Of a DNA stretch of 64,000 nucleotides, positions 11,116 through 51,370 are shown one piece after another. Source of the DNA: Escherichia phage Sa157lw; sequence record OK322699.1, one strand, 5' to 3'. A program made the translations under genes and the position numbers. The number at the start of each line of letters is the position of its first letter. The stretch's first letter is position 1. The notes under the pieces were generated by a model that was not told the DNA's origin, made no database searches, and saw only the letters and a program-made list of their open reading frames with translations.

Positions 11116-11283
11116 TTACTTTTTCTTCAGCTCTTCCAGCTTGGCTTCAATTTGGTCCAGAATCTCTTTACCTTTCTGGACGATGGCTTCACCGTCTTGC
11201 GCGTGTTTACGAAAAACCAGAGCGCCAGCAATGAAACCAACAACCACGCCTGGGAGCGCATACACCAACAGATCTTGTAACAT
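11116..11283 (-). CDS. small membrane protein (55 aa, below ORF-track cutoff)
   Basis: Manual translation MLQDLLVYALPGVVVGFIAGALVFRKHAQDGEAIVQKGKEILDQIEAKLEELKKK: one hydrophobic helix plus amphipathic tail. Confidence 0.35.
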   Translation of the reverse strand: MLQDLLVYALPGVVVGFIAGALVFRKHAQDGEAIVQKGKEILDQIEAKLEELKKK

Positions 11284-11321
11284 GATTTATATCCTCACTT
11301 TTATAAGCAAGGATATTTATA

Positions 11322-21695: not shown

Positions 21696-22144
21696 TTAGG
21701 CTTCTCTGGTCGCCAACCCTGGCTTAAACACCACCATTTCCTCAACGTTATTGGCACTCATAGAGGCTATAGAATCGAACCCTTTGTTGACAAGTTCTTT
21801 CACATTATCATGTATCTTACCAGGCTTTATCCCCAACTCTCGCATTTTATTTTCCCACACCGAAACATTGTTGGAATCTATTACAAGAGTCTTCTTGGCC
21901 TTGACACGAAATGCCATGACAATAGGTTCACCAGATTGACGATAGCGCACGGCATTTTCTGCGTAGATCTGTGCCTTTCCGGATCCCCTGTCAGGTAAAA
22001 CCCAGCACCCATCGTACCAGAGTCAGTCTGGCCAAATTTTTCAAAATCAAATATATCGAATTCAACATTAGACCCATGATACAAAACGATATTCGTAAAA
22101 TCAGGTAGCGTTGATTCGCGATAAAATTCTAGAAAGGTTTTCAT
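21696..22144 (-). pseudogene. gene split by a frameshift at a C4/G4 homopolymer (N-part 21881-22144, C-part 21696-21950)
   Basis: Two overlapping same-strand ORFs in different frames; joining at the run at 21985-21988 gives one continuous ~139-aa protein (...GAGFYLTG|GSGKAQIYAENAV...). Confidence 0.45.
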
Positions 22145-22183
22145 AGATACCCCACACTGGTCGTATGGGGTATTTAGGATGGA

Positions 22184-24981: not shown

Positions 24982-25215
24982 TTAAGAAACGATAACCGTC
25001 GCATCAGAATTAATTGCCTTAACCCATCCCACCGTCGGCGGGGTTAAAACGACCATATTTCCTTGATATATGATATGCGCGTTGTTACCCGTTGGAGCGC
25101 TGGGGCTATCACACAGATACACAGAACCGTGAGTCACTTGAAGAGTTTTCAAAGATGTGCCGTCTGAGACTTGCGTCCATGTACTTGCGTTTGGTGTGAT
25201 CTTAGCAGTTGCCAT
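24982..25215 (-). CDS. hypothetical protein (77 aa)
   Basis: Intact ORF just downstream of the tRNA-cluster terminator. Confidence 0.4.
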   Translation of the reverse strand: MATAKITPNASTWTQVSDGTSLKTLQVTHGSVYLCDSPSAPTGNNAHIIYQGNMVVLTPPTVGWVKAINSDATVIVS

Positions 25216-25250
25216 AATAGACCTCCTTTACAAGTCAGATCTATTTATTA

Positions 25251-29859: not shown

Positions 29860-30222
29860 TTCCTGAGCCTCGTCAAATTAATTAAATGTCCCCACTATTA
29901 TATTGGGAATATGTTTATTGAATATAACCCCAAGAAAGGCCAATAAAATAATGACAGCGATTATTAATAGGTAAAAACTACTTTTCTACAACATCAAGAA
30001 ACTGTATCTTAACGCGGTGCCCTTCGAGTTGTGAGTGTTAACGAACAACGAGAAGCAGCCTCCATGGCTGCGGAATGGGACTGCCTGTCAAGGCGGTGTT
30101 ACGAGCGAGGGCGTCAGCCCCCTCGCGAGTATATTCGAATAAATTAACGCGCGAGAGCGTTTTGATTCCCTTTGGCTAAATATCTTCAACACCATATTCA
30201 AACTCAGGTGATGGAGATTATC

Positions 30223-32004
30223 ATGGCCACGCAAACAGTTCCTTCACTCGACGTCAGAGCCTTTGAGTACATTATCAAACAGCGAATGAAAGCTGATCCC
30301 ACCTTTAAAGATTATGACTTTGAAGGTTCTGGTCTTAGTGCTATTATTCGTTTGTTGGCATCTGATGCGAACGCCATAGCCTTTATGCAGAACATGCTTA
30401 ATGGTGAAGGCCATTTAAAAACAGCAAATCAACGTTCTAATGTTGGTTTGTCTGCTGCTTTTCTTTCTTATACCCCCGACAACTATCGGGCGGCATACAT
30501 GTATGCCAACATCAAAGTAACGCCGTATGACGCCAGTACAGCTCCTAATGAGATCATTATGGACCGCCGTGTGATGTTCGTTGGGGCGAAGGATGGGAGT
30601 TCCTACAACTTTACTGTTGAAAAACCCGTGTCCGCCACGTTGACAACAGACGGTTATTACATGTTCAACAACGTGAAACTGATTCAGGGTAACTGGTTGT
30701 ACAAGACATATGATGTTGAAGGAAGCGCGATTTCGACTTATACGATACCTTCGGAAAATGTTGATATCAATCATCTGGTCGTACAGGTACAGGAATCAGA
30801 GTCCTCTGATGTTTCAACGACATACCAGAGATACAACAGTCCGTTCGACCTGAATCAATATGCATATCTCTATTTTGTGGAATTAGGGATAGATGGCCTG
30901 TATGTGTTTGAGTTCGGAGATGGTTATCTGTCTCGCCGAGTAGAAGATGGCAACGTTATTTTCCTCCAGTATTTAGAAACTTCTGGTGCTGAAGGTAATG
31001 ACATCACTAGTTTATCTTCCGCATCTTCGATAGGCGGGTTTAACCAGGTTGATATAGAATTGGTTTCCGAACGCAGTGCGGGTGGGGGAGATCCGGAATC
31101 TATTGAAGATACGAAGCGTCTGGCACCTTTGGCTTATCAGGCTGATGGCGCTGCCGTTACGGAAACCGATTACGGTGTTTTAACTGAACGCTTGTTTTCT
31201 AACGTTGCCCGTGCTAAATCATATGGGGGTGATACGCTTTCCCCTCCGGATTCTGGTTACGTTTATATCGCTGTGATACCATCTGTTGGGGAGACTCTTT
31301 CAGACGCAGAGAAGGCTGATATCGTTGCCGCGTTGGACAAATACAACGTTGGGTCCATCACCCCCAAAGTGGTAGATTCTGAGATCACATATATCCAAGT
31401 CACCACGACTATATTTTGGGATCCGACTTCGACAGTTTATGTTGAAGAACAGATGAAAGTCGTAGTTGGCAACAGTATTGTCAAATGGGGCGAAAACAAT
31501 CTCGGTGGATTTGATCAGTTGTTCGACAAAGAGATATTGCAGGAAGCAATTACGAAAATGGAACGTTCCATTAACTCAAATATCACGTCTGTCGGTTATA
31601 AACGTCATTTCAAACCCGATTATGGTGTGTTGGATAGCTTTACTTTCAGTTATGGGAGAAGCATTAAACCTGGTTCTGTGAAAATAACAGGGTTTAAACC
31701 GCTTCCGGCCGAAGTTGATTTCACATATTATATGCGCGATGACAATGGCGATTTGAACATGTATAAAGTGAACAACAACGACACCACTAAAGAATTTTTG
31801 GTTCAAAAGACTGGTGTTGTGGATTACGCCAACGGCGTCGTAGATCTTCAGCAGATTACGGTTTCAAACTATAATACTGAAGGAGTAACGATCGTTGTGC
31901 TACCAGATGGCCTGAATCAGAATATACAGGCTTCACAAAACCAGGTATTCAAAATCGGTGATGTGGTTGTTACGCCAGAGGTGCGCTATGTCCAAAGATC
32001 TTAA
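30223..32004 (+). CDS. baseplate wedge protein, T4 gp6-like
   Basis: N-terminal DYDFEGSGLSAIIRLLASDAN matches T4 gp6 LDYDFEGSRLNVLCDLLAYN; start placed at ATG 30223 (GGAG RBS) inside ORF-track ORF 30172-32004. Confidence 0.75.
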   Translation: MATQTVPSLDVRAFEYIIKQRMKADPTFKDYDFEGSGLSAIIRLLASDANAIAFMQNMLNGEGHLKTANQRSNVGLSAAFLSYTPDNYRAAYMYANIKVTPYDASTAPNEIIMDRRVMFVGAKDGSSYNFTVEKPVSATLTTDGYYMFNNVKLIQGNWLYKTYDVEGSAISTYTIPSENVDINHLVVQVQESESSDVSTTYQRYNSPFDLNQYAYLYFVELGIDGLYVFEFGDGYLSRRVEDGNVIFLQYLETSGAEGNDITSLSSASSIGGFNQVDIELVSERSAGGGDPESIEDTKRLAPLAYQADGAAVTETDYGVLTERLFSNVARAKSYGGDTLSPPDSGYVYIAVIPSVGETLSDAEKADIVAALDKYNVGSITPKVVDSEITYIQVTTTIFWDPTSTVYVEEQMKVVVGNSIVKWGENNLGGFDQLFDKEILQEAITKMERSINSNITSVGYKRHFKPDYGVLDSFTFSYGRSIKPGSVKITGFKPLPAEVDFTYYMRDDNGDLNMYKVNNNDTTKEFLVQKTGVVDYANGVVDLQQITVSNYNTEGVTIVVLPDGLNQNIQASQNQVFKIGDVVVTPEVRYVQRS

Positions 32005-32842: not shown

Positions 32843-32844
32843 AA

Positions 32845-34035: not shown

Positions 34036-34037
34036 AA

Positions 34038-34044
34038 CTAAATA
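34038..34044 (+). promoter_or_regulatory. CTAAATA late-promoter-like motif upstream of first tailspike gene
   Basis: The heptamer recurs 20-45 nt upstream of at least eight structural-gene starts; resembles T4 late promoter TATAAATA. Confidence 0.3.
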
Positions 34045-34077
34045 CCCCTAGATGACATGAATACATTTAGGGGTATT
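34041..34077 (+). repeat. 10-bp-stem hairpin (aataccccta / taggggtatt) at gene junction before first tailspike
   Basis: Perfect complement; variant of the element before the second and third tailspike genes. Confidence 0.6.
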
Positions 34078-34081
34078 ACAA

Positions 34082-37000
34082 ATGGCCAACAAACCAACAC
34101 AGCCTCTTTTCCCTTTGGGTTTAGAAACTTCGGAGTCTTCGAACATAAAAGGCTTCAACAACTCCGGCACCATAGAGCATTCCCCTGGTGCAATATTGAC
34201 GTTCCCTGAAGATACTGATGTTGCGGGTCTCCCATCTTCTGTGCGTTACAATCCTGATAGTGATGAATTCGAAGGTTATTACGAAAATGGCGGGTGGTTG
34301 TCTTTGGGTGGTGGCGGAATACGCTGGGAAACGCTCCCATACGCTCCCTCCAGCAATCTGTTAGAAGGGCGCGGCTATCTCATTAATAACTCCACTGGGA
34401 CTTCTACGGTGGTTCTTCCTTCCCCTACGCGCGTTGGTGACTCGGTTACAATTTGTGATGCCTATGGTAAATTCGCGACGTATCCATTGACCGTATCTCC
34501 AGCGGGAAATAACCTGTACGGCTCCACCGAAGATATGACGATATCCACCGATAACGTGTCGGCGACTTTCACTTGGTCTGGTGCTGAGCAGGGTTGGGTT
34601 GTTACATCTGGTGTTGGCCTCGGTCAAGGTCGTGTGTACAGTCGAGAGATTTTCACTCAAATTTTAGCATCTGATACAAATGAAGTGACTCTCAACATCC
34701 CTCCGACAATTGTGGACGTGTACACTGATGGGAAACGCCTTACAGAATCCAAATATTCTTTAAATGGAAACGTAATCACTTTCGACCCTTCTTTACCTGC
34801 TGGCACTGAATTGCAGGTAATAGAATATACTCCGATTCAGTTAGGTACTGGCGGCGGGGGTTCGGGCGCTTCTGCAATCACCTGGATTTACAATGGCGGA
34901 TCCGCTATCGGCGGCGAAACCGAAATAACGCTAGACATCGTTGTAGATGATGTTCCGGCTATTGATATAAACGGGTCTCGTCAGTACAAAAATCTTGGAT
35001 TCACGTTCGACCCATTGACGAGTAAAATCACTCTGACGCAAGAACTGGAACCAGAAGATGAAGTTGTTGTGGTTATAAATGGGACACCAAACATTTATAA
35101 CCAGATCGATCGTTCTTTACAGGAAGTTGCTCGCGCCTACAATTTTACAAATGCTCAAGTTATTTTGAGCAACGATTATACTTCTGCACTGGATAATAAA
35201 GTCGTTATTTATGATACGACATCCCAACGTTCTTGGGGGATTCCATCTGGAATTCCAGCAGGTTCTACAGTGGTTTCCGTCAATGGGGATCAACTGAAAT
35301 ACAAAAATGGATCAACTGAAACCACTGTTACATTGGTGAGCGTACCAGGTAGTGCAGAGAAGTTGAAGAACGATCTGGCGTCGAACTCTGGCGCGGGCAT
35401 GTTGAAAACTTCTAGAGGTGATACCGTAGAAGAAGAATTGACTTTTATTAATCAGAATATGGTCGTTCAAATTTCAGATTTCGCGAGCCTTAGAACTTTA
35501 GTGCCAGCCACAGCGGGCATCCGAGTCAAATTGAAAGGTTATTATTCTGGTTCTGAAATCGGTGGCGGAGAATTCATTTCCGTCGCTGGTGATGCTGTTG
35601 ATGATGCTGGGATGATTGCTCGAGTGTCAAGCAGCTTTTATTGGAAGAGAATTATCGACAAACATATTACTCCTGGTATGTATGGCATCAAAGGGAATCT
35701 TCCAGAAGATCCGGCAGTGAAACTGAACGCTATGTTTACGGCTGCGGCTGCGGCTAACGCTTATGTCTTACTGAACGATGTTGATACTCTGGTCTGTAAA
35801 AGCCCTGTCGTGATCCCAGCACATTCATTAGTGTACGGCAACAAACGGACCATATTGAAACGTGATGCATCGTTGTCATATGCTAATGATTTCTTGACAA
35901 TTATGAATGATTCATATGTCAAGGGGATCTATGTTGATGGTAGCCGTTTAGATTCTCAGACTCCTCTAGAAGCAGTTTTGGTGCGCATCGCTGGGAATGT
36001 GACTATCCATAAGAGCGAGATCCGAAACAATGCTGGCTATGGCGTTGTTGGTAACGCAGTCCCTGGCATTCGTATCACCAAGAACATTTTTTCCAACTTC
36101 GCCAAAGGTTGTGTGGCTATGTTTGGCGACGGAACGGCGACGAGTGATGATCTGCAAATTAATGATAACAGATTCTTTAACCTGGGCGCGGGAACCATTT
36201 ATGTTGGCGGTTACTCAAACTTCCTTGTCGACAAAAACGTCGGAAGAGGCACTTACGTGGGTTCTCCAGGAAACCGTCTGTATGTTGTGACCAATACCAA
36301 CGGGACTATCACCCAAAGCGCTGGGCCAGATTTTGGGGCGCTGAAAACGGGTATGTTCTTTGTATTGCCTGGTGGTTCTGAACATATGATAACTGCTGTC
36401 AACAGCCTTACAAGTGTGACAGTAACCCCACCACCGCCGTCGAACGCCACAGTTCGTGCAATCGCAGGGACAGGGGATCTTCTGGGCATCCAATCATGCT
36501 CCTACGGCACCATCAGCCGTAACAACCTGACCGATTGTGTGACTTACGGAACTGGTGGAGGCACGATGGAGGGGAGCACTCTGGGTTGCAATTATGTCAC
36601 TTGGGAAGACAACTTCATCCGCAACACAGGTAAGAACGGAATCAACGTCGGGCAATCAGGTGCTGGGGTCGCCACGTGTTCTATCCTGAGGAACACTCTG
36701 ATACAGGTTGGTAACGGCGGTCAGGGTGTTGGCCCAGCGTATCTTCTGCCTTGGTTCGATACGGTAGGTATCGCTCTGTATCAGGGAAACCCAGGTTATA
36801 TGGCGAATATGGACGTCAGTGATAACAACGTCTCTACATGGTCTGGCGATCTGAATGACGGCGCTGCTTGGTTTGGTATGAGCGGTTGTACGGAAGCCAC
36901 TGTGACTTGTACAGGCAACAAATCTTCTGGTTATTCCGACGGCTATGTTCGTGGAGATATATTAGAAGTCACGTTGACAGGTTATGGTACAGGGGCGGCT

Positions 37001-37255
37001 GCGACTTCATTCGTTAGTGATGGTGAGTCTATACAGATAACCGTTCAAACAGGTACTTCACCAACAGCTTCTCCTTATTTTTCAGTGCGGAAGGCGATCC
37101 GCACCCGCCATCAACCGATGATAACGGCGCAGATCGTCACCACAACTGGGAACATGTCTCATTGTTGGGGTATGCAATCTAGTACAGCAGGAAACTGGAT
37201 GGTGGGTCAGAATACAACTCCTTCAGGGGTCACGACGTATTACGCAAAAGGGTAA
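34082..37255 (+). CDS. tailspike protein 1 (1057 aa; beta-helix-like repeats)
   Basis: First of four tandem large genes; N-terminal module resembles that of 39518-42283; periodic Gly/Asn/Thr-rich repeats suggestive of a right-handed beta-helix. Confidence 0.7.
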   Translation: MANKPTQPLFPLGLETSESSNIKGFNNSGTIEHSPGAILTFPEDTDVAGLPSSVRYNPDSDEFEGYYENGGWLSLGGGGIRWETLPYAPSSNLLEGRGYLINNSTGTSTVVLPSPTRVGDSVTICDAYGKFATYPLTVSPAGNNLYGSTEDMTISTDNVSATFTWSGAEQGWVVTSGVGLGQGRVYSREIFTQILASDTNEVTLNIPPTIVDVYTDGKRLTESKYSLNGNVITFDPSLPAGTELQVIEYTPIQLGTGGGGSGASAITWIYNGGSAIGGETEITLDIVVDDVPAIDINGSRQYKNLGFTFDPLTSKITLTQELEPEDEVVVVINGTPNIYNQIDRSLQEVARAYNFTNAQVILSNDYTSALDNKVVIYDTTSQRSWGIPSGIPAGSTVVSVNGDQLKYKNGSTETTVTLVSVPGSAEKLKNDLASNSGAGMLKTSRGDTVEEELTFINQNMVVQISDFASLRTLVPATAGIRVKLKGYYSGSEIGGGEFISVAGDAVDDAGMIARVSSSFYWKRIIDKHITPGMYGIKGNLPEDPAVKLNAMFTAAAAANAYVLLNDVDTLVCKSPVVIPAHSLVYGNKRTILKRDASLSYANDFLTIMNDSYVKGIYVDGSRLDSQTPLEAVLVRIAGNVTIHKSEIRNNAGYGVVGNAVPGIRITKNIFSNFAKGCVAMFGDGTATSDDLQINDNRFFNLGAGTIYVGGYSNFLVDKNVGRGTYVGSPGNRLYVVTNTNGTITQSAGPDFGALKTGMFFVLPGGSEHMITAVNSLTSVTVTPPPPSNATVRAIAGTGDLLGIQSCSYGTISRNNLTDCVTYGTGGGTMEGSTLGCNYVTWEDNFIRNTGKNGINVGQSGAGVATCSILRNTLIQVGNGGQGVGPAYLLPWFDTVGIALYQGNPGYMANMDVSDNNVSTWSGDLNDGAAWFGMSGCTEATVTCTGNKSSGYSDGYVRGDILEVTLTGYGTGAAATSFVSDGESIQITVQTGTSPTASPYFSVRKAIRTRHQPMITAQIVTTTGNMSHCWGMQSSTAGNWMVGQNTTPSGVTTYYAKG

Positions 37256-37265
37256 TATTGAATGC

Positions 37266-37272
37266 CTAAATA
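37266..37272 (+). promoter_or_regulatory. CTAAATA late-promoter-like motif
   Basis: Same heptamer, 34 nt upstream of ATG 37306. Confidence 0.3.
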
Positions 37273-37302
37273 CCCCATATTGGACATCCTTTATGGGGTA
37301 TT
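37269..37302 (+). repeat. 10-bp-stem hairpin (aataccccat / atggggtatt) immediately before tailspike 2 start
   Basis: Identical stem to the element at 39479-39512. Confidence 0.65.
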
Positions 37303-37305
37303 ATC

Positions 37306-39402
37306 ATGATTTCTCAATTCAATCAGCCACACGGCTCCACTTCAATATTTGTTAACAAACAATCTATCGCTCGAAATTTCGGTGTCAAAGAAGACGAAGT
37401 CGTTTATTTCACTGCTGGTATTGATCTCAGTGGATTTAAAGTAATTTATGATGAGTCTACCCAACGGGCTTATTCTCTTCCTTCGGGTATTGTTTCAGGA
37501 ACGACTGCGATAAGTCTGAACGAACAAGCCATCCTCACTCATTCCGCTGGCTCTGTTGACCTTGGGGAATTAGCAGTAAGCCGCGAAGAATATGTGACTT
37601 TACCTGGTTCTTTTAATTTCGGCCATACCATTAATGTGAAAAATGAACTTCTTGTTCACGATGATAAAAAATATCGATGGGATGGTTCACTTCCTAAAAC
37701 TGTCGATGCTGGCTCAACACCTGAAACATCTGGTGGCGTTGGTATTGGTACATGGCTGAGTGTTGGTGACGCAGCATTTAGACAGGAAGCCAACAAAAAA
37801 TTCAAATATTCAGTAAAGTTATCTGATTATTCTACATTACAGGATGCAGCGACAGCAGCCGTAGATGGATTGCTTATTGATGTTGACTACACTTTTACTG
37901 CAGATGAGAGTGTAGATTTTAGCGGTAAAGTTTTAATCATTGAATGCAAGGGAAAATTCATTGGCGATGGTATGTTGGTTTGGAATGGTTTGGGTGCGGG
38001 TTCAGTAATTAAGAAACCGCACATGCATACTAAAACTACGCCGTATACTGTTTACCGATTCGATGCAAACGGTAATTGGGTTACAGACCCAACACAAGTT
38101 CTGGCATCTGTTCAGCAGCGTTTGGATGTTGGATATAAGCCAAATATTAACGATTTAGATATTTGGGACGACCTTCCTGATAATGTAAAAAATCAGGTTG
38201 CTGGTGCTACTTTGCGAATAATGAGCGGCGATAATATCATCGTAGAGAACCCAGAAGCTACATTTGGTGGTTATCTATTTACTTTATGTAATAGGATTCT
38301 TGTTAAGAATCCACGCAATTTTATTGCTTTGGAATCGGGCATTACATTTGAGAACCATCATACAACTGCATGGGGTACTGGCAACTGGGTTGTTGGGGGT
38401 GAGATTAAATATGGCTCTGGTTCCGCTGTACTGTTCATTCGCAATGATGGTGGTACAGACCATGATGGTGGAGTAAGGGATTTAATATCCTATCGCGTTG
38501 GAGAATCTGGTGTTAAAACCTATCAAAATGAAATAGGTGGTCGTTCAGCCAGGAACTACCGTTTAGTGTTCGACAATATAACTACAATCCAGTGTTACTA
38601 TGATGGTATTGATGTTAATGCTGACACAGGGTCGCCAACTGAACGTGTGGATGACTACTCACTCGCAGAGTATCCATGGTTCCACCTACCTACTCAACAT
38701 ATCATCCGTAATATTATTACTCGTGATTGTATGGGGATTGGTGCTTGGTGGGATGGTCAGAAAAATATTATTGATAATGTTGTTACTTATGAGGCCCATA
38801 AGGAAGGCGTCTTCGATAGGGGTACTAACAATGATATTACTAACATTACTGTAGTAGGTGCGAATAAGGATTTAACTAACCTAAATCAGATTACCTGTGA
38901 GGGAGGTAGTAGACTTCGTGGTATTAACATCCATGCATATACTACACAAGGTTACGCTATATACGCTCCGTCTTCAGAAGTAAGTAATGTTTCCTGTGCT
39001 GGTTCCGGTACTAAGAAATTACTATGTACCTATATAAGCGATATTCAGGGAGGTAATATCAATGTTCAGCATAGTGCCAACCAAATGACACTTGCAATGC
39101 AACCTGCTATGGGTGGTACTACAAACCCATCTTTGCTTATGACGGCAGATTGCCAGGTTGCTACACCAGGGGGTGAGGCAAGTATTGTCAAGCTTTCGGC
39201 AATTCAGGAGGGTGTACGTGTAGGTGAGTTTCAGCTTAACCGCTTAGGCTTTAAGCATATGAGTATACCTGCTGCCCCTTTACAATTACCAGAGAGCGCT
39301 CTGGAACATAATTCATCTATAGGATTCTTCTTCGGAAGTGACGGAGCATTGAGGTTGCTTGCTAAAAAACCAGATGGAAGTTATGTAACATACACACTTT
39401 AA
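37306..39402 (+). CDS. tailspike protein 2 (698 aa)
   Basis: N-terminus MISQFNQPHGSTSIFVNKQSIARNFGVKEDEVVYFTAG...YDESTQRAYSLPSGI parallels that of 42338-44128. Confidence 0.7.
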   Translation: MISQFNQPHGSTSIFVNKQSIARNFGVKEDEVVYFTAGIDLSGFKVIYDESTQRAYSLPSGIVSGTTAISLNEQAILTHSAGSVDLGELAVSREEYVTLPGSFNFGHTINVKNELLVHDDKKYRWDGSLPKTVDAGSTPETSGGVGIGTWLSVGDAAFRQEANKKFKYSVKLSDYSTLQDAATAAVDGLLIDVDYTFTADESVDFSGKVLIIECKGKFIGDGMLVWNGLGAGSVIKKPHMHTKTTPYTVYRFDANGNWVTDPTQVLASVQQRLDVGYKPNINDLDIWDDLPDNVKNQVAGATLRIMSGDNIIVENPEATFGGYLFTLCNRILVKNPRNFIALESGITFENHHTTAWGTGNWVVGGEIKYGSGSAVLFIRNDGGTDHDGGVRDLISYRVGESGVKTYQNEIGGRSARNYRLVFDNITTIQCYYDGIDVNADTGSPTERVDDYSLAEYPWFHLPTQHIIRNIITRDCMGIGAWWDGQKNIIDNVVTYEAHKEGVFDRGTNNDITNITVVGANKDLTNLNQITCEGGSRLRGINIHAYTTQGYAIYAPSSEVSNVSCAGSGTKKLLCTYISDIQGGNINVQHSANQMTLAMQPAMGGTTNPSLLMTADCQVATPGGEASIVKLSAIQEGVRVGEFQLNRLGFKHMSIPAAPLQLPESALEHNSSIGFFFGSDGALRLLAKKPDGSYVTYTL

Positions 39403-39416
39403 TTTATCTTGAGCAA

Positions 39417-39445
39417 AAACCCCGCTTTGGCGGGGTTCTTATTAT
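39417..39445 (+). terminator. intrinsic terminator (aaccccgc-tttg-gcggggtt)
   Basis: GC stem then T-rich run after stop at 39402. Confidence 0.5.
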
Positions 39446-39475
39446 ACCTTTGTTCATAAATTTTATTAGTTCAGA

Positions 39476-39482
39476 CTAAATA
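39476..39482 (+). promoter_or_regulatory. CTAAATA late-promoter-like motif
   Basis: Same heptamer, 36 nt upstream of ATG 39518. Confidence 0.3.
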
Positions 39483-39512
39483 CCCCATATTGGCAAATCC
39501 TTATGGGGTATT
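39479..39512 (+). repeat. 10-bp-stem hairpin (aataccccat / atggggtatt) immediately before tailspike 3 start
   Basis: Same element as 37269-37302 with a different loop. Confidence 0.65.
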
Positions 39513-39517
39513 TTCAA

Positions 39518-42283
39518 ATGACCAGAAATGTAGAAGAATTATTCGGCGGCGTAATCACAGCTCCCCACCAGATTCCTTTCACGTATAAATCAAATGTCGG
39601 TGGAGAAACTTTCATTTCTCTACCTTTCTATCCTGTCGCTGGTGTTGTCACAATTAACGGCGGGGTGCAAGTTCCGTTAGACAACTTCGAAATAGACGGG
39701 AATACGTTAAACCTCGGGCGCGCATTGTCTAAAGATGACGTGGTTTATTGCCTGTTCGACAAAATCCTTTCACCAGAAGATACTTCTAAAGGTATTCGAA
39801 TATACAAATTTCAAGCCGTGGGTGGAGAAACTGAATTCACGCCTGACTTTACTTCTTATGGTGTCCAGTCTCTTTATATCGGTGGTGAGTACAAAACTCC
39901 TGATATAGAATATTCATACAACAGTACGACTGGGAAAGTTTCCTTACAAACTGCGCTGACTGCAGGGGTGTGGGTTGTTGCGGAGATGTCTGTTAAACAA
40001 CCGAATATCAGTCCGGCGTTCGATCGCAGTATCCAAGAAATTGCCCGTTCGGCTAACGTAAAAGACTCTGAAGTCATTGTCAGCACTGATACCATATCTT
40101 TACTCGACGACAAGAAAGTTGTTTATGATTCAGCGGCGCAGATTATTTATGGTTTACCAACTATCCCTGATGGTTCAGTGATTTCTTCTGTTAGTAATGG
40201 GCAACTTACTTATAATCCAGGTAATGTTGTAGTGGATTTGTTGCCTTTAGAAGATTCATTTATTAATGTGATAAACACTCTGGGGCGCAATGATGGTGCC
40301 AAGTATATCGGAGAATGCCATTCTGTTGCTGATCTCAGGAATACTGAACCCACTATGGATGGACAACGCATTATTCTTAAGCAACACACTGCGGGTACTC
40401 TTCTTGGTGGAGGGGTATTCCGTGCGTTAATTGATGGTACAGGAAAGACTGATGATAACGGCACTGTGATCAAAACTGTTGGAGGCGCAGCCTGGTTACG
40501 TGTTAATGCTGATAGAGTTAACCCATTCATGTTTGGTGCTTTGGGCGGTTCTAATGATGATACTATTCCAGTACAATCTTGTGTGGACAGTGGTAAGGCC
40601 ACACAATTAACTGGTGTACATTACGTTAGCAATATCCGGTTAAAATATAATACGTCGTCTATTTATGGGTCTGGATTACATTACTCCAGGTTGCATCAGT
40701 TGCCTTCTGCTACTGGGAATTGTATTACCATAAAAGATACATGCTCCCTTATTGTATTAGACTCCTTTGGGGTATATGGCACAGGTGCACAACAAGGCAC
40801 ATCATTTACTGCGGGTACAACAGGTATCTATATAGAAACTCCTTCAGGTCTCTCAGCTGATTATCCGTTCCACACTACCGCAGACCCAAGACGCGACTTG
40901 TGTATTTCTAAGGTCCATATAGCAGGTTTTGATGAATATGGGTTAAATATTGATAGTGGTAACTTTAGTGTTACTACAGATTCTCTTTTAGTCAACCACA
41001 TCAATCAGGTGGGCGTCCGTTGTGCTACTACTGATTGGACTTGGACAAATATCCAGGTTAATACCTGCGGTAAACAATGTCTGGTTCTTGATGGTTGTGG
41101 TAATGGTCGTATTATTGGTGGTAAATTCATTTGGGCTAACTGGCAACCTTATGGTACAGTAGGACAGTTCCCAGGCATTACTATTAATAATAGCCAGAAT
41201 ATGGTTATTAATGGTATTGAGGTACAAGATTGTGGCGGGAATGGCATTGAGATTAGCGATTCATATTCAATTTCCATGAACGGATTGAACACCAATCGTA
41301 ACGGCATCAACGCTAACAACACTTTCTACAACATCGTATTTAACAAAAGTGATGCAGTTATCAACGGATTCGTAGGACTCAATTATGCCGCGAATAGTGG
41401 TTCAGGTGCTAACTCTAGTGCGGGCAATTTTCAGTTCCTGTCTAATGATTGCAGCGTCACCATTAATGGTGTGGTTGAGACTGGTTATATGGGCATTAAC
41501 TTTATTGGTGATAACAATATTATCAACCCCACAAATTCCGACCTGAGCATTAACGGATTGGTTAATTATTCCAAGACTGGTTTGCAAACCATGAACGAGA
41601 CCCCTACATTTGATGGTGTTAGCACTACACCTGTTTATGTAAGTGTCCCATCTTCTGTAGGGCAAGTAAATGGTCTGAGACTATCACAAGCCAACAAAGA
41701 TAAATTACTGTACTCAAGAACAGCAGGTCCAGAAGGTATTACCATGGCTGCTGTTGTAGTACCTACCATATCTGGAGCTGAAGTATTTAACTTCATGGCC
41801 ATTGGTTCAGGGTTTAGTGATACATCCAACAGTCTTCATCTTCAATTAGTTATAGACGCTTCCGGAAAACAAACAATTGCTTTGCTATTGGGGGGCGATG
41901 GTACAACCCAAATTTTATCTGGGGATTTACCTAACGACCTTAAACTACAAAGTGGTGTGCCATATCATATAGCTATTGGTGCTAAACCTGGATATTTCTG
42001 GTGGAGTATTCTTAATATTCAGACGGGTAAGAGAATCAGACGGTCATTCCGAGGCGCTTATTTAGCTGTACCATTTAATTCTATATTCGGATTAACTTCT
42101 TCATTAACATTCTTCTCGGATAGCAATGCTGGTGGGGATGCCTGTTCTGGTGTAGGTGCTAAAGTGTATGTTGGTATGTTCTCTTCTGAGAATGATTATG
42201 TAGCTTCACGGTACTACAACCTGATTAATCCTGTAGACCCTAATAAGTTAATTAGTTACCGTATATTGGATTCTTCTATTTAA
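39518..42283 (+). CDS. tailspike protein 3 (921 aa; start at ATG 39518 after the hairpin)
   Basis: ORF-track start 39503 lies inside the hairpin; by analogy with 37306 the ATG at 39518 is preferred. Confidence 0.7.
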   Translation: MTRNVEELFGGVITAPHQIPFTYKSNVGGETFISLPFYPVAGVVTINGGVQVPLDNFEIDGNTLNLGRALSKDDVVYCLFDKILSPEDTSKGIRIYKFQAVGGETEFTPDFTSYGVQSLYIGGEYKTPDIEYSYNSTTGKVSLQTALTAGVWVVAEMSVKQPNISPAFDRSIQEIARSANVKDSEVIVSTDTISLLDDKKVVYDSAAQIIYGLPTIPDGSVISSVSNGQLTYNPGNVVVDLLPLEDSFINVINTLGRNDGAKYIGECHSVADLRNTEPTMDGQRIILKQHTAGTLLGGGVFRALIDGTGKTDDNGTVIKTVGGAAWLRVNADRVNPFMFGALGGSNDDTIPVQSCVDSGKATQLTGVHYVSNIRLKYNTSSIYGSGLHYSRLHQLPSATGNCITIKDTCSLIVLDSFGVYGTGAQQGTSFTAGTTGIYIETPSGLSADYPFHTTADPRRDLCISKVHIAGFDEYGLNIDSGNFSVTTDSLLVNHINQVGVRCATTDWTWTNIQVNTCGKQCLVLDGCGNGRIIGGKFIWANWQPYGTVGQFPGITINNSQNMVINGIEVQDCGGNGIEISDSYSISMNGLNTNRNGINANNTFYNIVFNKSDAVINGFVGLNYAANSGSGANSSAGNFQFLSNDCSVTINGVVETGYMGINFIGDNNIINPTNSDLSINGLVNYSKTGLQTMNETPTFDGVSTTPVYVSVPSSVGQVNGLRLSQANKDKLLYSRTAGPEGITMAAVVVPTISGAEVFNFMAIGSGFSDTSNSLHLQLVIDASGKQTIALLLGGDGTTQILSGDLPNDLKLQSGVPYHIAIGAKPGYFWWSILNIQTGKRIRRSFRGAYLAVPFNSIFGLTSSLTFFSDSNAGGDACSGVGAKVYVGMFSSENDYVASRYYNLINPVDPNKLISYRILDSSI

Positions 42284-42337
42284 AAATATACCCCTCTTCG
42301 GAGGGTATTTACTAGAGAAAAACAGGAGATTCTTATT

Positions 42338-44128
42338 ATGAATCCGCAATTTGCTCAACCGAAAGGTTCTACTTCAAAAGAAACGAACAAAGATAGCATT
42401 GCCCGTAAATTTGGGTGTAAAAAGTCGGAAGTCGTTTATGCCAAAGCAGGACAGTCCTTGTCTGGTTATAAAGTGATCTATGATAAGGTGTCTCAACGTG
42501 CCTATTCTCTTCCTTCTAACATTGATGCTGTAACGGTCACCAGTTTAGTTGACGGCATCCTTACGCACTCTGGAGGCACCGTAGATTTAAATGAATTGGC
42601 AATGACACGCCGCGAGTTTATTACTTTGCAAGGAGACTTTGTTTCCGGTGTTACCGTCAATGCTAAGCATGAAGTGATCGCATACGGAAATAGCCGATTC
42701 CGTTGGGACGGGGATCTGCCGAAAGTTGTTCCCCCTAATTCAGAACCTGTCATACCAGATTGGGTTAACGTTGATGCCAACCCAGCACTGTCTGAATTAG
42801 CGAAATCTGTTGGCTCGTCTCTGGTGGGATATAAACCAACGGGGACAACCACTACGACTGGTACGGTCAAAGGAAAATTGGATAGTTTTATTGATTTTGC
42901 AAATGACTATTGCGGTGGCCCAATTACAGGACAACCTGATCTCACTTCTCAATTACAACAAGCAATTATTGATGCTTTTAATTCTGGTATTGCCGACATT
43001 AAGATTGTTGGGGATTTTTATATATCTGGCATGATATTATGGTATCCAGGTGTTCGATTGATTGGTGGACGTTATGACTCTACATTGATACGCGTTTCCA
43101 ATACTTTCCCAGTGGGTGGGACAATGTTTCGTTCTTACCGTCCTCCACTGTGGGCGGCGGGTTGTCATGGTCTATCTCTTGAAAATGTGTATTTGGTAGG
43201 CCGCGCCGCCAAGGACGTTTATGGCATAGATATCAATGATGCATCTTATTTTAATCTTGAAGGTGTGCGTCTGGATCTGTTTGATAAAGCAATTTCTTTT
43301 AATAGATGGATTGATGAAACTCGTGTAGACACGAGCGGTACAATTACCTATCCCAACGCGCATAGTGCCGAAATGGGTGGCCAATCATATTTTGGTACAA
43401 TAACTCGTTGCTACGCAGGCAATTGCGTCACGTGCGTTGATTTTAATGGTGTGGTAAACCGTTGTACATTTATTAGCAACACATGGACAACTAGTGATCT
43501 GGCATATAATTTCAGCAACCCGCGTGGAGTTTATGAAACTAACACATTCATCACTTGTAATATTGAAGGTGTGAAGAGTGCATTTGAATGGTTCTTTTCT
43601 ATAAATTCACCATATCACAATGTGTGGATTAATACGAGCATCGATAACGGGAACCCAGATATCACGAGTTTAGCGAAAGATGGTGGTCGACAGACATTTA
43701 TTGGTTTAGCGATTTTCCCTTATGGAAACCCATCGTTGGTTAATTGGTATGGAATTAACCCCAATGGTCATCGGAGTACTGTCTTGGGTACTGATCTTGG
43801 GGAAAATTTACCAGAAGATCAGTTAAAAACTCAGGTTCGGGAAGAATTACACACTTTAACAGGTATTGCCAACAAGCAATGGGCTGGACAACAAGTAACT
43901 GAGACAATTCCCGCCAATGGTTACAAAGCATTGAATATTAGCGTGCCAGGATTAAAAGGTAACTCAGCAGTTATTGCTTCATTATCTGCCATATATCATG
44001 GTATTACAGTTGATGCCGCCAGCAACAACACTGGTACAGTTTCAGTAATAATAAGCAATTACACAGGTTCTCCAATTGATGTAAATGCTTACCTGAGTGT
44101 CACAGGCATAGCCAAAAGTTTCTTGTGA
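42338..44128 (+). CDS. tailspike protein 4 (596 aa)
   Basis: N-terminus MNPQFAQPKGSTSKETNKDSIARKFGCKKSEVVYAKAG...YDKVSQRAYSLPSNI homologous to that of 37306-39402. Confidence 0.7.
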   Translation: MNPQFAQPKGSTSKETNKDSIARKFGCKKSEVVYAKAGQSLSGYKVIYDKVSQRAYSLPSNIDAVTVTSLVDGILTHSGGTVDLNELAMTRREFITLQGDFVSGVTVNAKHEVIAYGNSRFRWDGDLPKVVPPNSEPVIPDWVNVDANPALSELAKSVGSSLVGYKPTGTTTTTGTVKGKLDSFIDFANDYCGGPITGQPDLTSQLQQAIIDAFNSGIADIKIVGDFYISGMILWYPGVRLIGGRYDSTLIRVSNTFPVGGTMFRSYRPPLWAAGCHGLSLENVYLVGRAAKDVYGIDINDASYFNLEGVRLDLFDKAISFNRWIDETRVDTSGTITYPNAHSAEMGGQSYFGTITRCYAGNCVTCVDFNGVVNRCTFISNTWTTSDLAYNFSNPRGVYETNTFITCNIEGVKSAFEWFFSINSPYHNVWINTSIDNGNPDITSLAKDGGRQTFIGLAIFPYGNPSLVNWYGINPNGHRSTVLGTDLGENLPEDQLKTQVREELHTLTGIANKQWAGQQVTETIPANGYKALNISVPGLKGNSAVIASLSAIYHGITVDAASNNTGTVSVIISNYTGSPIDVNAYLSVTGIAKSFL

Positions 44129-44133
44129 TCAAA

Positions 44134-44160
44134 CAACCCCGCTTCGGCGGGGTTTTTATT
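44134..44160 (+). terminator. intrinsic terminator (aaccccgc-ttcg-gcggggtt + T-run)
   Basis: Perfect GC stem, tttttattt after stop 44128. Confidence 0.55.
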
Positions 44161-44183
44161 TCTATCTGTCTGTTGGCTGTATA

Positions 44184-44190
44184 CTAAATA
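44184..44190 (+). promoter_or_regulatory. CTAAATA late-promoter-like motif
   Basis: 33 nt upstream of ATG 44223; a second TATAAATG lies just downstream. Confidence 0.3.
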
Positions 44191-44222
44191 TCTCTATAAA
44201 TGGCACTCGATGGAGCATCAAA

Positions 44223-50667: not shown

Positions 50668-50728
50668 TTATCAATTCCTCAAAAGAATTAATGATTGACT
50701 AAATACCTTCAAAATTGAGGGTAAAGTC

Positions 50729-51370
50729 ATGGCTACTTCAAAATATTTCAACTATACAGCACACCAAGGTACTCAGAAATTAATTGACGACTTGGTGGTC
50801 GAGATGATACAACTACGTGGGATTGACGTCAAGTATATCCCACGTTCCATCGTTGAAAAATACCCAATTTTAAACGAGGCTGAACATAAATTCGACCAGG
50901 CGTTCGATATCGAAGTATACATGCAAGATTACCAAGGCTTTAACACCCAAATGTGGGAGAAGTTTGGCGGTATTCAATTACAAGATGAAGTGACGTTCAC
51001 CATTGCTCGTCGCCGTTTTTCGGAAGTGATTGGTAATGGGCCAGGACTTGAGCAGATGCCTCAAGAAGGTGATTTGATATACCTCCCAATGGCGAACAAG
51101 ATATTCAAAGTGAATAACCCGAATAACGACGAAGAATTTATGCAATTCGGTAAATGGTACACATATTCCTTACCGTGCACGTTGTTCCAATATGGTAATG
51201 AAGATTTTGATACTGGTGTATCTGAAATTGACGACATCGATAAACGTTTACAAGATCTAGACGGCGATGGTGTCTATAAAGATGCCAGTCTACAGACAGA
51301 TAACCAATTTGCGGACGAAATAGAGAAAGATCTTTCGCCCAATAAAATGAAGATAGACTTCGGGGAATAA
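50729..51370 (+). CDS. putative neck protein (T4 gp14 position)
   Basis: Synteny: between gp13-like and terminase genes; CTAAATA motif at 50699-50705. Confidence 0.5.
   Translation: MATSKYFNYTAHQGTQKLIDDLVVEMIQLRGIDVKYIPRSIVEKYPILNEAEHKFDQAFDIEVYMQDYQGFNTQMWEKFGGIQLQDEVTFTIARRRFSEVIGNGPGLEQMPQEGDLIYLPMANKIFKVNNPNNDEEFMQFGKWYTYSLPCTLFQYGNEDFDTGVSEIDDIDKRLQDLDGDGVYKDASLQTDNQFADEIEKDLSPNKMKIDFGE

Follow-up and report, generated by a model that had tools for sequence, protein, structure and literature searches.

Hairpins upstream of three tailspike genes in phage Sa157lw as candidate switches joining a late-promoter-like box and the ribosome-binding site

Three of the four tailspike genes of Escherichia phage Sa157lw are preceded by a stable hairpin that carries a late-promoter-like box in its 5′ arm and the Shine-Dalgarno sequence of the gene in its 3′ arm, and we consider it fairly probable that each hairpin works as a combined late promoter and ribosome-binding-site switch, as in T4 e, soc, 49 and I-TevI. 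The anatomy of the hairpins, their predicted stability and conservation, the co-variation of their arms, their genome-wide association with TAAATA and their sense-strand bias come from the sequence analysis, and we infer the transcription start sites, the occurrence of read-through and the effect on translation. The DNA analyzed, called the window below, was 64,000 nucleotides of the record OK322699.1.

Organization of the tailspike cluster

The window belongs to a Kuttervirus (Ackermannviridae), a Vi01/CBA120-like Salmonella/E. coli phage, and its tailspike region was 98–99.8% identical to that of Salmonella phage AR2819. Four open reading frames on the + strand, in the order tsp4, tsp3, tsp2 and tsp1, lie between the baseplate wedge genes and a vrlC-like gene, and the same layout is found in CBA120, Vi01, PS5 and others. 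Comparison with solved structures and Pfam indicated that all four encode tailspikes, as originally predicted. The product of tsp4 (34082..37255, 1057 aa) has N-terminal baseplate-anchor and assembly domains followed by a beta-helix receptor-binding part; its residues 1–339 matched CBA120 TSP4-N (7REJ, E 1.4e-205), and a Pfam Beta_helix match (PF13229) was also found. tsp3 (37306..39402, 698 aa) encodes a Tail_spike_N module and a P22/9NA/Det7-type endorhamnosidase (PF09251, P22 tail-spike). tsp2 (39518..42283, 921 aa) encodes a close homologue of the O157-specific CBA120 TSP2 and matched 5W6P. Its reading frame could start at 39503 (926 aa) or at 39518 (921 aa), and the full-length CBA120 TSP2 structure 6W4Q (921 aa) aligned over residues 1–921 with the frame from 39518 (2023 bits), which ruled out ATG 39503 as the true start. 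tsp1 (42338..44128, 596 aa) encodes a Tail_spike_N module and a receptor-binding part; the DNA of the latter was 99.5% identical to Vi01 TSP1, and the C-terminal part gave no match in Pfam or PDB. Sa157lw has a mix of a Vi01-type TSP4 and TSP1, a 9NA/P22/Det7-type TSP3 and a CBA120-type TSP2.

The N-terminal modules had been predicted to be shared in pairs. For TSP3 and TSP1 this was borne out, with PF18668 (Tail_spike_N) in both and 55% identity over residues 1–139 (E 4e-41). TSP4 and TSP2 are also related, but not at the extreme N-terminus: residues 275–543 of TSP4 and 100–348 of TSP2 were 31% identical (E 3e-29), and TSP4 has an additional anchor domain, about 270 aa long. The expected branched multi-specificity apparatus, with conserved N-terminal modules and unrelated C-terminal parts, is the known Ackermannviridae TSP1-4 complex, which has already been described (PMC8825819, PMC11721090).

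Hairpins before tsp4, tsp3 and tsp2

The hairpins of the original prediction were found before 37306 and 39518 with the arms AATACCCCAT/ATGGGGTATT, and before 34082 in a variant form with the arms CCCCTAGATG/CATTTAGGGG. The variant, HP4 (34041..34077, +), has a 14-bp stem including one G·U pair and a 9-nt loop (−19.1 kcal/mol, z −5.7), and in its 3′ arm the Shine-Dalgarno sequence, GGGGT, occupies 34070–34074, 7 nt ahead of ATG 34082. HP3 (37269..37302, +) has an 11-bp stem and a 2-bp inner stem (−19.6 kcal/mol, z −3.9) with the arms at 37269–37278/37293–37302, and GGGGT at 37295–37299 is 6 nt ahead of ATG 37306. HP2 (39478..39513, +) has a 12-bp stem and a 2-bp inner stem (−18.7 kcal/mol, z −3.9) with the arms at 39479–39488/39503–39512, and GGGGT at 39505–39509 is 8 nt ahead of ATG 39518. 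All three stand 3–5 nt upstream of their tsp starts, and RNA folding of 200 dinucleotide shuffles gave none as stable as HP4, HP3 or HP2. The tsp3-upstream and tsp2-upstream modules of the window were 85% identical over 41 nt.

Control of translation had been suggested with reference to an in-frame ATG at 39503 inside the stem. This ATG exists in the 3′ arm of HP2, with no Shine-Dalgarno sequence ahead of it, and is incidental; the GGGGU in the 3′ arm is what supports translation control.

Late-promoter-like box in the 5′ arm

The 5′ arm of the hairpins equals the family motif CTAAATAcCcc, a T4-like late-promoter box, which is the signature regulatory motif of the Ackermannviridae (formerly Viunalikevirus) according to Adriaenssens et al. 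2012 as quoted in PMC7283392. Exact copies of CTAAATACCCC open all three tailspike hairpins, at 34038..34048 for tsp4, 37266..37276 for tsp3 and 39476..39486 for tsp2 (all +), and the predicted late transcript starts are about 34049–34052, 37277–37280 and 39487–39490, respectively. One more exact copy is at 22177 (−). The four copies in the window compare with 0.63 expected, and none of 100 shuffles reached four. TAAATA boxes were found 20–50 nt upstream of many virion gene starts, and the late genes with an upstream box included those for the wedge, tsp4, tsp3, tsp2, vrlC, neck, sheath, scaffold, hub, tail lysozyme and endolysin. The box (A/C)CTAAATA has 6 of 8 matches to the 8-bp T4 box TATAAATA, which stands roughly one helical turn ahead of the transcription start. 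A gp55-like late sigma factor, a gp33-like co-activator and a gp45-like sliding clamp (gp122, gp158 and gp90) have these roles by the annotation of AR2819 only, and their genes are outside the window. We infer from the sequence that TAAATA is a late promoter.

T4 late promoters have an AT-rich segment downstream of the box (PMC2988020). Just after the hairpin boxes this melting segment is absent, and CCCC stands there instead, but at the hairpin-less boxes (44184, 54949, 59730 and 60948) the downstream sequence is AT-rich, as it is in T4. The box of the vrlC-like gene (44184..44190, +; ATG 44223) is an internal contrast, with AT-rich sequence downstream, no CCCC and no hairpin (z +0.46). Since GGGGTAT follows all four exact CTAAATACCCC sites in the window and AT-rich sequence follows the hairpin-less boxes, ‘cCcc’ tracks the hairpin and not the promoter. 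The GC-rich CCCC in the segment to be melted, unlike T4 late promoters, might weaken the promoter.

Conservation and RNA character of the stems

The hairpins were conserved among relatives, HP4 and HP2 in the four genera Kuttervirus, Agtrevirus, Limestonevirus and Taipeivirus, and HP3 in Kuttervirus only. Across the four genera, the stems were invariant and the loops variable. The few changes seen in stems left the bases paired (gp34, G-C to C-G; the wedge gene, U·G to C-G, with the C-G pair in Taipeivirus; tsp4, G·U to G-C), and in one locus (L017) a U-to-C change disrupted one outer HP3 pair. A search of IMG/VR with the TSP4 N-terminus gave 14 loci, mostly Kuttervirus, so a covariation test on orthologues alone would be underpowered, and the paralogous sites were compared instead. 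Arm duplexes between sites had a mean of −16.6 kcal/mol for cognate and −8.3 kcal/mol for non-cognate arms, and none of 100,000 permutations was as good. In an alignment (A1) that mixed paralogues and orthologues, with the structure derived from the same sequences, 90.9% of cells were paired against 76.0 ± 1.5 after shuffling (0/500 reached it), the covariation score was 0.400 against 0.146 (0/500), 7 of the 12 pairs changed on both sides, and slid controls were 33–54% paired. An independent annotation of Klebsiella phage Magnus also places a ribosome-binding site on the GGGT within the 3′ arm.

The stems hold 29 G·U pairs, and at 7 of 8 sites the sense-strand hairpin folded 2–5.5 kcal/mol more stably than its antisense counterpart, which points to a coding-strand RNA rather than a DNA cruciform. 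It is very improbable that the inverted repeat acts as DNA, either as the site of a dimeric phage regulator or as a cruciform modulating the late promoter. A near-perfect palindrome does lie over the promoter box, and HP2 and HP3 share the loop sequence ATATTGG..CCTTTAT, which is also kept across genera. However, the arm spacing is not constant among sites (4 to 18 nt), G·T pairs are mismatches in DNA, and the arms differ between sites with pairing kept, which is the signature of a structure and not of a protein recognition sequence.

The same design at other genes

The hairpins proved not to be peculiar to the tailspike junctions, because the same design stands ahead of about seven non-tailspike genes. 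About 10 genes genome-wide share the order of box, hairpin and Shine-Dalgarno sequence, including the endolysin (a PF11860 muramidase) and a RuvC-like resolvase. In AR2819, 9 of 68 TAAATA sites had a qualifying hairpin (5′ arm overlapping TAAATA, 3′ arm ending at most 12 nt from an ATG that opens an ORF of 45 codons or more), compared with 4 of 1686 sites over 14 hexamer permutations. In the window, the gp6-like baseplate wedge gene (30176..30225, +; ATG 30223) reads CTAAATA-TCTTCA ... TGGAGAT-TATC-ATG, the neck protein gene (50699..50731, +) has the arms TACCTTCA/TGAGGGTA (z −4.0), and the ART-PolyVal-like gene (22142..22177, −; ATG 22144) has CTAAATACCCCATAC/GTGTGGGGTAT (z −4.3). The design was also found with a T4-type TATAAATA box at 11281..11320 (−; ATATCCTTGCTT/AAGTGAGGATAT, z −4.2). 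A weaker case is that of a 77-aa gene (25213..25248, −; AATAAATAGATCT/AGGTCTATT), whose orthologue in locus L025 has a compensatory G-C to C-G change.

A further TAAATA hairpin at 38406 was rejected as a chance match, being inside the tsp3 coding sequence with no long-ORF start codon after it. Public viral contigs were scanned for CTAAATACCCC-N(6-30)-GGGGTAT, and Ackermannviridae genomes were returned together with many unrelated contigs, roughly the chance number for an 18-base pattern; the pattern presupposes pairing and is thus biased, and this result was set aside.

Terminators and RNA processing

Intrinsic terminators were found after tsp3 (39415..39443, +; AACCCCGC-TTTG-GCGGGGTT followed by a T-rich tail) and after tsp1 (44132..44160, +), the second being a 90% identical copy of the first. 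Between tsp2 and tsp1 there is a weak terminator-like hairpin (42288..42310, +; CCCTC-TTCG-GAGGG then TATTT, z −1.0), which we considered as a variant of the promoter hairpin and rejected, as it has no TAAATA, a weak fold and a terminator-like form. The Shine-Dalgarno sequence of tsp1 is AGGAG at 42325–42329, and since there is no TAAATA box before tsp1, it is probably co-transcribed with tsp2.

A terminator function had been proposed for the hairpins themselves, which would make them intrinsic terminators or attenuators and each tailspike gene its own transcription unit. They do stand directly after stop codons in intergenic DNA, several hairpins of this design have U-rich sequence behind them (UAUUUUC for tsp2 and endolysin, UAUUUUU for gp83 and resolvase), and A-tract/U-tract stems are typical of strong or bidirectional terminators. 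But a consensus terminator scan flagged the nearby true terminators (39418–39437, 44135–44154 and 42292–42305) and none of HP4, HP3 and HP2, which have no T-run after the stem; ACAAAUG (tsp4) and AUCAUG (tsp3) follow instead, and those U's that do occur are complementary to the AAATA box. HP2 also stands 35 nt behind a canonical terminator, with the same arrangement at CBA120 tsp3, and a terminator would leave unexplained the TAAATA 5′ arm and the constant Shine-Dalgarno 3′ arm 3–8 nt from the AUG. We therefore regard terminators as an unlikely explanation.

The scan found no terminator between gp52 and tsp4 and none between tsp4 and tsp3. With none at the latter junction, the end of the tsp4 message could be set by a processing or stability signal. 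Exonucleases working 3′-to-5′ are commonly halted by a stable stem-loop behind a coding region, and RegB-like and RNase H-like nucleases are annotated in the phage, which would suit hairpins that serve RNA stability or processing, by 3′-end protection or by RNase cleavage into monocistronic units. Such elements would not predict the strict TAAATA and Shine-Dalgarno geometry (3–8 nt from AUG), nor hairpins at genes whose upstream neighbor is on the opposite strand (wedge, neck). A permissive Rfam scan of 33900–44300 gave sub-threshold chance matches only, and we think this explanation improbable.

Cassette edges and recombination

The hairpins had also been suggested as a recombination site for swapping tailspike cassettes. 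In alignments across relatives, homology with CBA120 and Sajous1 resumed exactly at 37266, and homology with Vi01 and three other genera resumed at 39470–39475. The blocks of homology open either where a hairpin module starts or at a terminator. The tsp3-upstream modules (terminator and hairpin) of CBA120 and Sajous1 matched the tsp2-upstream module of the window with 77% and 90% identity, respectively, and receptor-binding domains are described as being exchanged among TSP positions as well as among genera (PMC11721090). Together with the likeness of the two upstream modules in the window, these findings would fit hot spots or cassette boundaries, with conserved palindromes promoting the exchange of receptor-binding cassettes between phages and positions.

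However, for every variable cassette the other (5′) edge falls within a gene (35133–35175, 37742–37781, 40246–40257 and 42488–42588), at the junction of N-terminal and receptor-binding domains and with no hairpin, and ordinary terminators mark two of the four 3′ edges (42285–42292 and 44132–44150). No recombinase is annotated among AR2819 gp50–gp65, and the two-ended hairpins with a nearby recombinase of a site-specific cassette system (integron attC, shufflon or invertase type) were not found at the cluster. The hairpins also precede single-copy, non-mosaic genes (endolysin, resolvase, neck and wedge), and the G·U pairs and sense-strand bias speak against a DNA structure. As the 5′ edges are inside genes, ordinary homologous recombination suffices, and its action through the conserved intergenic and N-terminal block accounts for the pattern. 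The hairpin is part of a conserved module (promoter, hairpin and N-terminal domain) serving as a homology arm. Of the suggested recombination site, the 3′ edges at hairpins or terminators are the part that agrees with the alignments, and we find it unlikely that the hairpins themselves promote the exchange.

Proposed promoter and ribosome-binding-site switch

In the proposed switch, the 5′ arm, made of the 3′ part of the (C)TAAATA box and the next 4–9 bases (CCCC...), would act as an anti-Shine-Dalgarno sequence, and the 3′ arm would consist of the Shine-Dalgarno sequence of the gene (GGGGU, GAGGGU or GGAGGU) plus AU(U), ending 3–8 nt before the AUG. RNA coming from upstream would contain both arms and fold, so that the ribosome-binding site would be hidden and the downstream gene poorly translated. 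A gp55-type late sigma factor would start RNA about 5–8 nt after TAAATA, and this late RNA, without most or all of the 5′ arm, would be freely translated. tsp4, tsp3 and tsp2 would each be expressed from their own late promoter and not from read-through, and tsp1, with no box, would ride on the tsp2 transcript through the weak terminator. The stem begins within TAAATA, which means that a transcript started anywhere downstream of the box would lose at least 4–5 pairs and one with a T4-like start 9–11. For tsp4, tsp3 and tsp2, the Shine-Dalgarno window was predicted to be unpaired with a probability of 0.00–0.11 in read-through RNA and 0.39–0.51 in RNA starting 6–8 nt after the box.

Some observations speak against a gate. 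Shine-Dalgarno exposure in the late RNA is predicted to be about 0.3–0.5 and not 1. The upstream neighbors of the wedge and neck genes are on the opposite strand, which puts the source of read-through in doubt. The strong terminator 35 nt upstream of HP2 should leave little read-through there, so a gate looks redundant at tsp2. The upstream stop codon is 5 nt (tsp4) or 12 nt (tsp3) before the stem, and at these two genes a terminating ribosome could open the hairpin, coupling translation instead of blocking it.

A wider reading of the switch, which we put forward tentatively as plausible but somewhat short of probable, is that ‘cCcc’ is an anti-Shine-Dalgarno sequence and not a promoter contact, that about 10 genes (the three tailspike genes, endolysin, resolvase and the neck and wedge proteins among them) form a regulon tied to their own late promoters, and that the tailspike module, 35–40 nt long and near-identical at the tsp3/tsp2 junctions and across genera, is also a fixed 3′ homology anchor. 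Such an anchor would let receptor-binding cassettes move between phages and positions with their expression undisturbed.

Ackermannviridae phages (CBA120, Det7, S117, SPTD1 and others) have been engineered by tailspike swaps to re-target Salmonella, E. coli and Klebsiella. If the hairpins gate translation, such constructs would have to leave promoter, hairpin and N-terminal module undisturbed, or carry compensating changes in both arms; otherwise a new tailspike would perhaps be transcribed but untranslated, or made in the wrong amount for a balanced TSP1-4 complex. The signature motif would also gain a functional reading, each tsp gene would be a defined transcription and translation unit, and a mechanism known from a few genes of T4 would also be at work in a second phage family, and more widely there, virion genes included.

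Comparison with known systems

The hairpins share an intergenic stem-loop and some downstream U's with rho-independent terminators, but differ from them in having no U-run, loops of 9–18 nt and only 4 G-C pairs. Compared with the TSP1-4 complex of CBA120, Det7 and Vi01 (7REJ, 6W4Q, 5W6P, 6NW9 and 4OJ5), the Sa157lw cluster shows no essential difference, as the gene order, the assembly modules at the N-terminus, the variable and probably beta-helical receptor-binding parts and their mosaic exchange are alike. The family motif CTAAATAcCcc is identical in sequence to that in the tailspike hairpins, and the literature covered here reports it as a linear motif only. The Ackermannviridae literature searched, which did not cover the original 2012 motif paper, gave this linear motif and gene annotations, with no hairpin description or transcript map found and no mention of pairing between the motif and the downstream GGGGUAU(U).

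T4 translational gating by a hairpin that sequesters the ribosome-binding site was reportedly described by McPheeters et al. in 1986. The T4 genes e (lysozyme), soc, 49 (endonuclease VII) and I-TevI have such a hairpin with a late promoter in its 5′ strand (PMC3014915). Sa157lw is like T4 in the TATA-like late box in or at the 5′ strand, in the Shine-Dalgarno sequence in the 3′ strand before the AUG, in late transcripts predicted to be without the 5′ strand, and in the use of the design at an endolysin and a Holliday-junction resolvase, the gene classes of T4 e and 49. It is unlike T4 in that the AUG is outside the helix, the phage family is another one, the box is CTAAATA and not TATAAATA, and a fixed CCCC anti-Shine-Dalgarno sequence lies within the signature motif. 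The use is also wider: some 10 genes in each genome have the design, among them the three tailspike genes and other virion genes inside late clusters, and it is not confined to genes exposed to early read-through. The tailspike cluster is already well described, and the hairpin switch is probably a T4-type mechanism in the Ackermannviridae.

Organization of the tailspike gene cluster

A nucleotide database search with the 10.4-kb tailspike region matched 399 phage records. The top match was Salmonella phage AR2819 (Kuttervirus, Ackermannviridae), with 99.8% identity over 84% of the query, followed by Vi01, CBA120, PS5, Marshall, and others; the equivalent region of AR2819 is flanked by baseplate wedge genes and a vrlC-like gene. 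Gene identities were assigned by comparison with solved structures, and all four consecutive tailspike genes of the original prediction were matched, namely TSP4 (34082-37255, +; residues 1-339 match CBA120 TSP4-N, 7REJ, E 1e-205), TSP3 (37306-39402, +; residues 1-166 match CBA120 TSP3 and residues 156-698 the 9NA/Det7/P22 endorhamnosidase fold, PF09251), TSP2 (39518-42283, +; residues 1-921 aligned to full-length CBA120 TSP2, 6W4Q), and TSP1 (42338-44128, +; N-terminus matching the TSP1/TSP3 N-terminal module). The proposed sharing of N-terminal modules is real in both pairs (TSP3 and TSP1 are 55% identical across residues 1-139, and TSP4 275-543 is 31% identical to TSP2 100-348), but in TSP4 the module shared with TSP2 has an internal position. 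The cluster is the already published branched TSP1-4 complex (PMC8825819, PMC11721090), and this part of the observation is already known. The cluster (34082-44128) is also a mosaic: tsp4 and tsp3 are ~98% identical to those of Vi01, PS5, and AR2819, tsp2 matches AR2819 and Sajous1 at 97-98% identity and CBA120 at 92%, and tsp1 is 99.5% identical to Vi01, AR2819 having a different tsp1.

Hairpins and terminators at the junctions

The hairpins predicted before tsp4, tsp3, and tsp2 were recovered with matching sequences. RNA folding gave -19.1 kcal/mol (z -5.7) for HP4 (before tsp4, 34041-77), -19.6 kcal/mol (z -3.9) for HP3 (before tsp3, 37269-302), and -18.7 kcal/mol (z -3.9) for HP2 (before tsp2, 39478-513), and for each of them 0 of 200 shuffles folded equally well. 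The junction before tsp1 is unlike the other three and has a short CCCTC-TTCG-GAGGG stem followed by TATTT (z -1.0). The terminator scan flagged this stem as terminator-like on both strands and flagged strong terminators at 39418-39437 and 44135-44154, but none of HP4, HP3, and HP2; the region had no Rfam family match. The strong terminators after tsp3 (39415-39443) and tsp1 (44132-44160) are mutual copies, 90% identical, and tsp3 itself is preceded only by its hairpin, 10 nt past the tsp4 stop codon. Within the tsp3 coding sequence, TAAATA followed by a stable hairpin (38406-38470, +; -17.4 kcal/mol) was found in every phage that has this P22-type receptor-binding part, and it is probably due to chance or coding constraint.

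A late-promoter-like box in the 5' arm and a ribosome-binding site in the 3' arm

Every tailspike hairpin starts within an exact CTAAATACCCC, an 11-mer that occurs 4 times in the window vs 0.63 expected. CTAAATAcCcc is one of two published "unique regulatory motifs" of Ackermannviridae (PMC7283392). The CTAAATA part is similar to the T4 late box TATAAATA, boxes of either kind sit 20-50 nt 5' of many virion gene starts, and a late sigma factor, a gp33-like late transcription factor, and a sliding clamp are annotated in the AR2819 record. Boxes lacking a hairpin (44184 before vrlC, 54949, 59730, and 60948) are followed by AT-rich sequence and not by CCCC, so the "cCcc" of the signature motif tracks the hairpin and not the box. 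At 44184-44201 (+), 5' of the vrlC-like gene, two overlapping TATA-like boxes (CTAAATATCTCTATAAAT) without a hairpin were seen, and this double arrangement is kept in CBA120 and MK-13.

In all cases the 3' arm consists of a Shine-Dalgarno (SD)-like run and AU(U), and its end lies 3-8 nt 5' of the AUG. As this run, tsp4, tsp3, and tsp2 have GGGGU, the neck gene has GAGGGU, the endolysin gene GGAGGU, and gp14 GAGGA (gp numbers are AR2819 genes), and in the Klebsiella phage Magnus record the ribosome-binding sites of the first two tailspike genes are independently annotated on GGGT in the 3' arm. The ATG at 39503 within the HP2 stem, previously linked to translational control, is present and in frame, but it is not the start of the solved TSP2 and has no preceding SD. 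The gp6-like wedge gene starts at ATG 30223 (593 aa) in the CBA120 annotation and at TTG 30172 (610 aa) in the AR2819 record; the former is most likely correct and the latter unlikely, because the late box and hairpin fall between the two positions. RegA-like (translational repressor) and RegB-like genes are annotated in AR2819 (L002 20766-21230 and 45417-46034). RegB cuts GGAG within SD sequences, and the hairpin-gated genes mostly have GGGGU instead, which we speculate could spare them from RegB.

Genome-wide occurrence

The complete AR2819 genome was searched for hairpins whose 5' arm overlaps TAAATA and whose 3' arm ends ≤12 nt from the ATG of a long ORF. Such hairpins were present at nine of the 68 TAAATA sites, vs 4 of 1686 sites across 14 control permutations of the hexamer. 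The nine precede tsp4, tsp3, tsp2, and the genes for the neck protein, gp83 (DUF7217), gp140 (endolysin; PF11860 muramidase plus peptidoglycan-binding domain), gp155 (RuvC-like resolvase), gp30 (ART-PolyVal-like), and gp14; under a relaxed rule, the gp6-like wedge gene and gp34 join them. Non-tailspike sites in the window lie at 30176(+), 50699(+), 22177(-), 11320(-), and 25248(-), and the endolysin and resolvase hairpins at 3909-3948 and 15029-15062 of AR2819 (L003). The hairpin design is thus not specific to tailspike junctions. The ART-PolyVal-like gene (21700-22144, -) encodes 149 aa in AR2819 and CBA120; in the window copy a frameshift near residue 57 interrupts the gene, leaving an ORF of only 87 aa from ATG 22144 and the remainder in another frame.

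Conservation and nature of the structure

The tsp4 and tsp2 hairpins have identical arms in Agtrevirus and Limestonevirus, and Taipeivirus HP4 keeps pairing with its inner three pairs changed; the coding DNA around these hairpins is just 65-75% identical. The tsp3 hairpin is confined to Kuttervirus, and in its place Agtrevirus MK-13 carries a terminator together with an AGGAG leader of the tsp1 type. Among relatives the stems are constant and the loops variable. Pairing-preserving stem changes were found at gp34 (G-C to C-G, in the relative's locus L025) and in Magnus at the wedge gene (U·G to C-G) and tsp4 (G·U to G-C); one outer pair was broken in another relative (L017).

At paralogous sites, bases +1 to +9 after the box vary and their partner bases vary along. 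Cognate arm duplexes averaged -16.6 kcal/mol vs -8.3 for non-cognate ones, and 0 of 100,000 permutations were as good. In a 23-sequence alignment, 90.9% of cells were paired vs 76.0 ± 1.5 when shuffled (33-54% for slid structures), the covariation score was 0.400 vs 0.146 shuffled, and 7 of 12 pairs varied on both sides, figures which pool paralogues and orthologues on a structure derived from the same sequences and are not a probability. These co-variation statistics support a selected structure. The stems hold 29 G·U pairs, and at 7 of 8 sites the sense-strand hairpin is 2-5.5 kcal/mol more stable than the antisense one. The two arms are 4 to 18 nt apart, depending on the site. A structure in coding-strand RNA fits these features better than a cruciform or a dimeric protein site does.

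Cassette edges and recombination

The hairpins had also been proposed as recombination sites for swapping tailspike cassettes, with breakpoints expected at them across relatives. In blastn of window 32001-46000 against ten relatives, conserved blocks started at 37266, the first base of the HP3 box (CBA120, Sajous1), at 39414-39420 (terminator) or 39470-39475 (HP2; Vi01 and three other genera), at 42285-42292, and at 44132-44150; they ended within tsp4 (35133-35175), tsp3 (37742-37781), tsp2 (40246-40257), and tsp1 (42488-42588). Each variable cassette therefore spans from the junction of the N-terminal and receptor-binding domains to the stop codon, and the hairpin is part of the conserved block 3' of it. 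Breakpoints thus coincide with hairpins on one side but fall elsewhere on the other, and the same hairpins occur at non-mosaic genes, so a dedicated recombination role, though conceivable, is unnecessary. The tsp3-upstream and tsp2-upstream modules of the window are near copies (85% over 41 nt), and the Sajous1 tsp3-upstream module is 90% identical to the window tsp2-upstream module over 103 nt. In some Kutterviruses the entire tsp3-upstream intergenic module, with its terminator and promoter-hairpin, copies the tsp2-upstream one at 77-90% (window 39414-39516 compared with Sajous1 L012 5258-5360 and CBA120 L005 17361-17444).

A proposed late-promoter-linked translational gate

Our analysis suggests that the hairpins are best accounted for by a translational gate of the T4 type that has a late promoter embedded in it, draws on the family signature motif, and is used genome-wide. 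With a T4-like start 5-8 nt past the box, the 5' ends of late tsp RNAs would fall at about 34049-52, 37277-80, and 39487-90, so that these RNAs would be without the 5' arm. The predicted P(unpaired) of the SD window is 0.00-0.11 in read-through RNA and increases to 0.39-0.51 in late RNA. The cluster would then consist of three self-contained late units, each with its own box, anti-SD, SD, and gene. The tsp1 gene would share a transcript with tsp2 by read-through of the weak terminator, and strong terminators lie after tsp3 and tsp1. We lean moderately towards this arrangement of three gated units with tsp1 riding on the tsp2 transcript. Weak points of this reading are that a strong terminator precedes HP2, that the wedge and neck sites come after genes of the opposite strand, and that the melting region is GC-rich, unlike in T4. 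Another is that a ribosome which terminates 5-12 nt 5' of HP4 or HP3 might unfold the stem, so that translation would be coupled and not blocked. In the literature covered, the 2012 key paper aside, we found no description of CTAAATAcCcc pairing with a downstream SD. The finding matters chiefly to those engineering these phages.

In T4 e, soc, 49, and I-TevI, a helix sequesters the ribosome-binding site in transcripts from upstream, and late promoters sit in the DNA for the 5' strand of the helix, so that late transcripts lack it and are well translated (PMC3014915). In T4 the late box is found about one helical turn 5' of the transcription start, with AT-rich DNA after it (PMC2988020), whereas the melting region here is GC-rich. 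The hairpin anatomy is otherwise the same in this phage, and so are two of the gene classes, lysis enzyme (e) and junction resolvase (49) in T4, endolysin and RuvC-like resolvase here.
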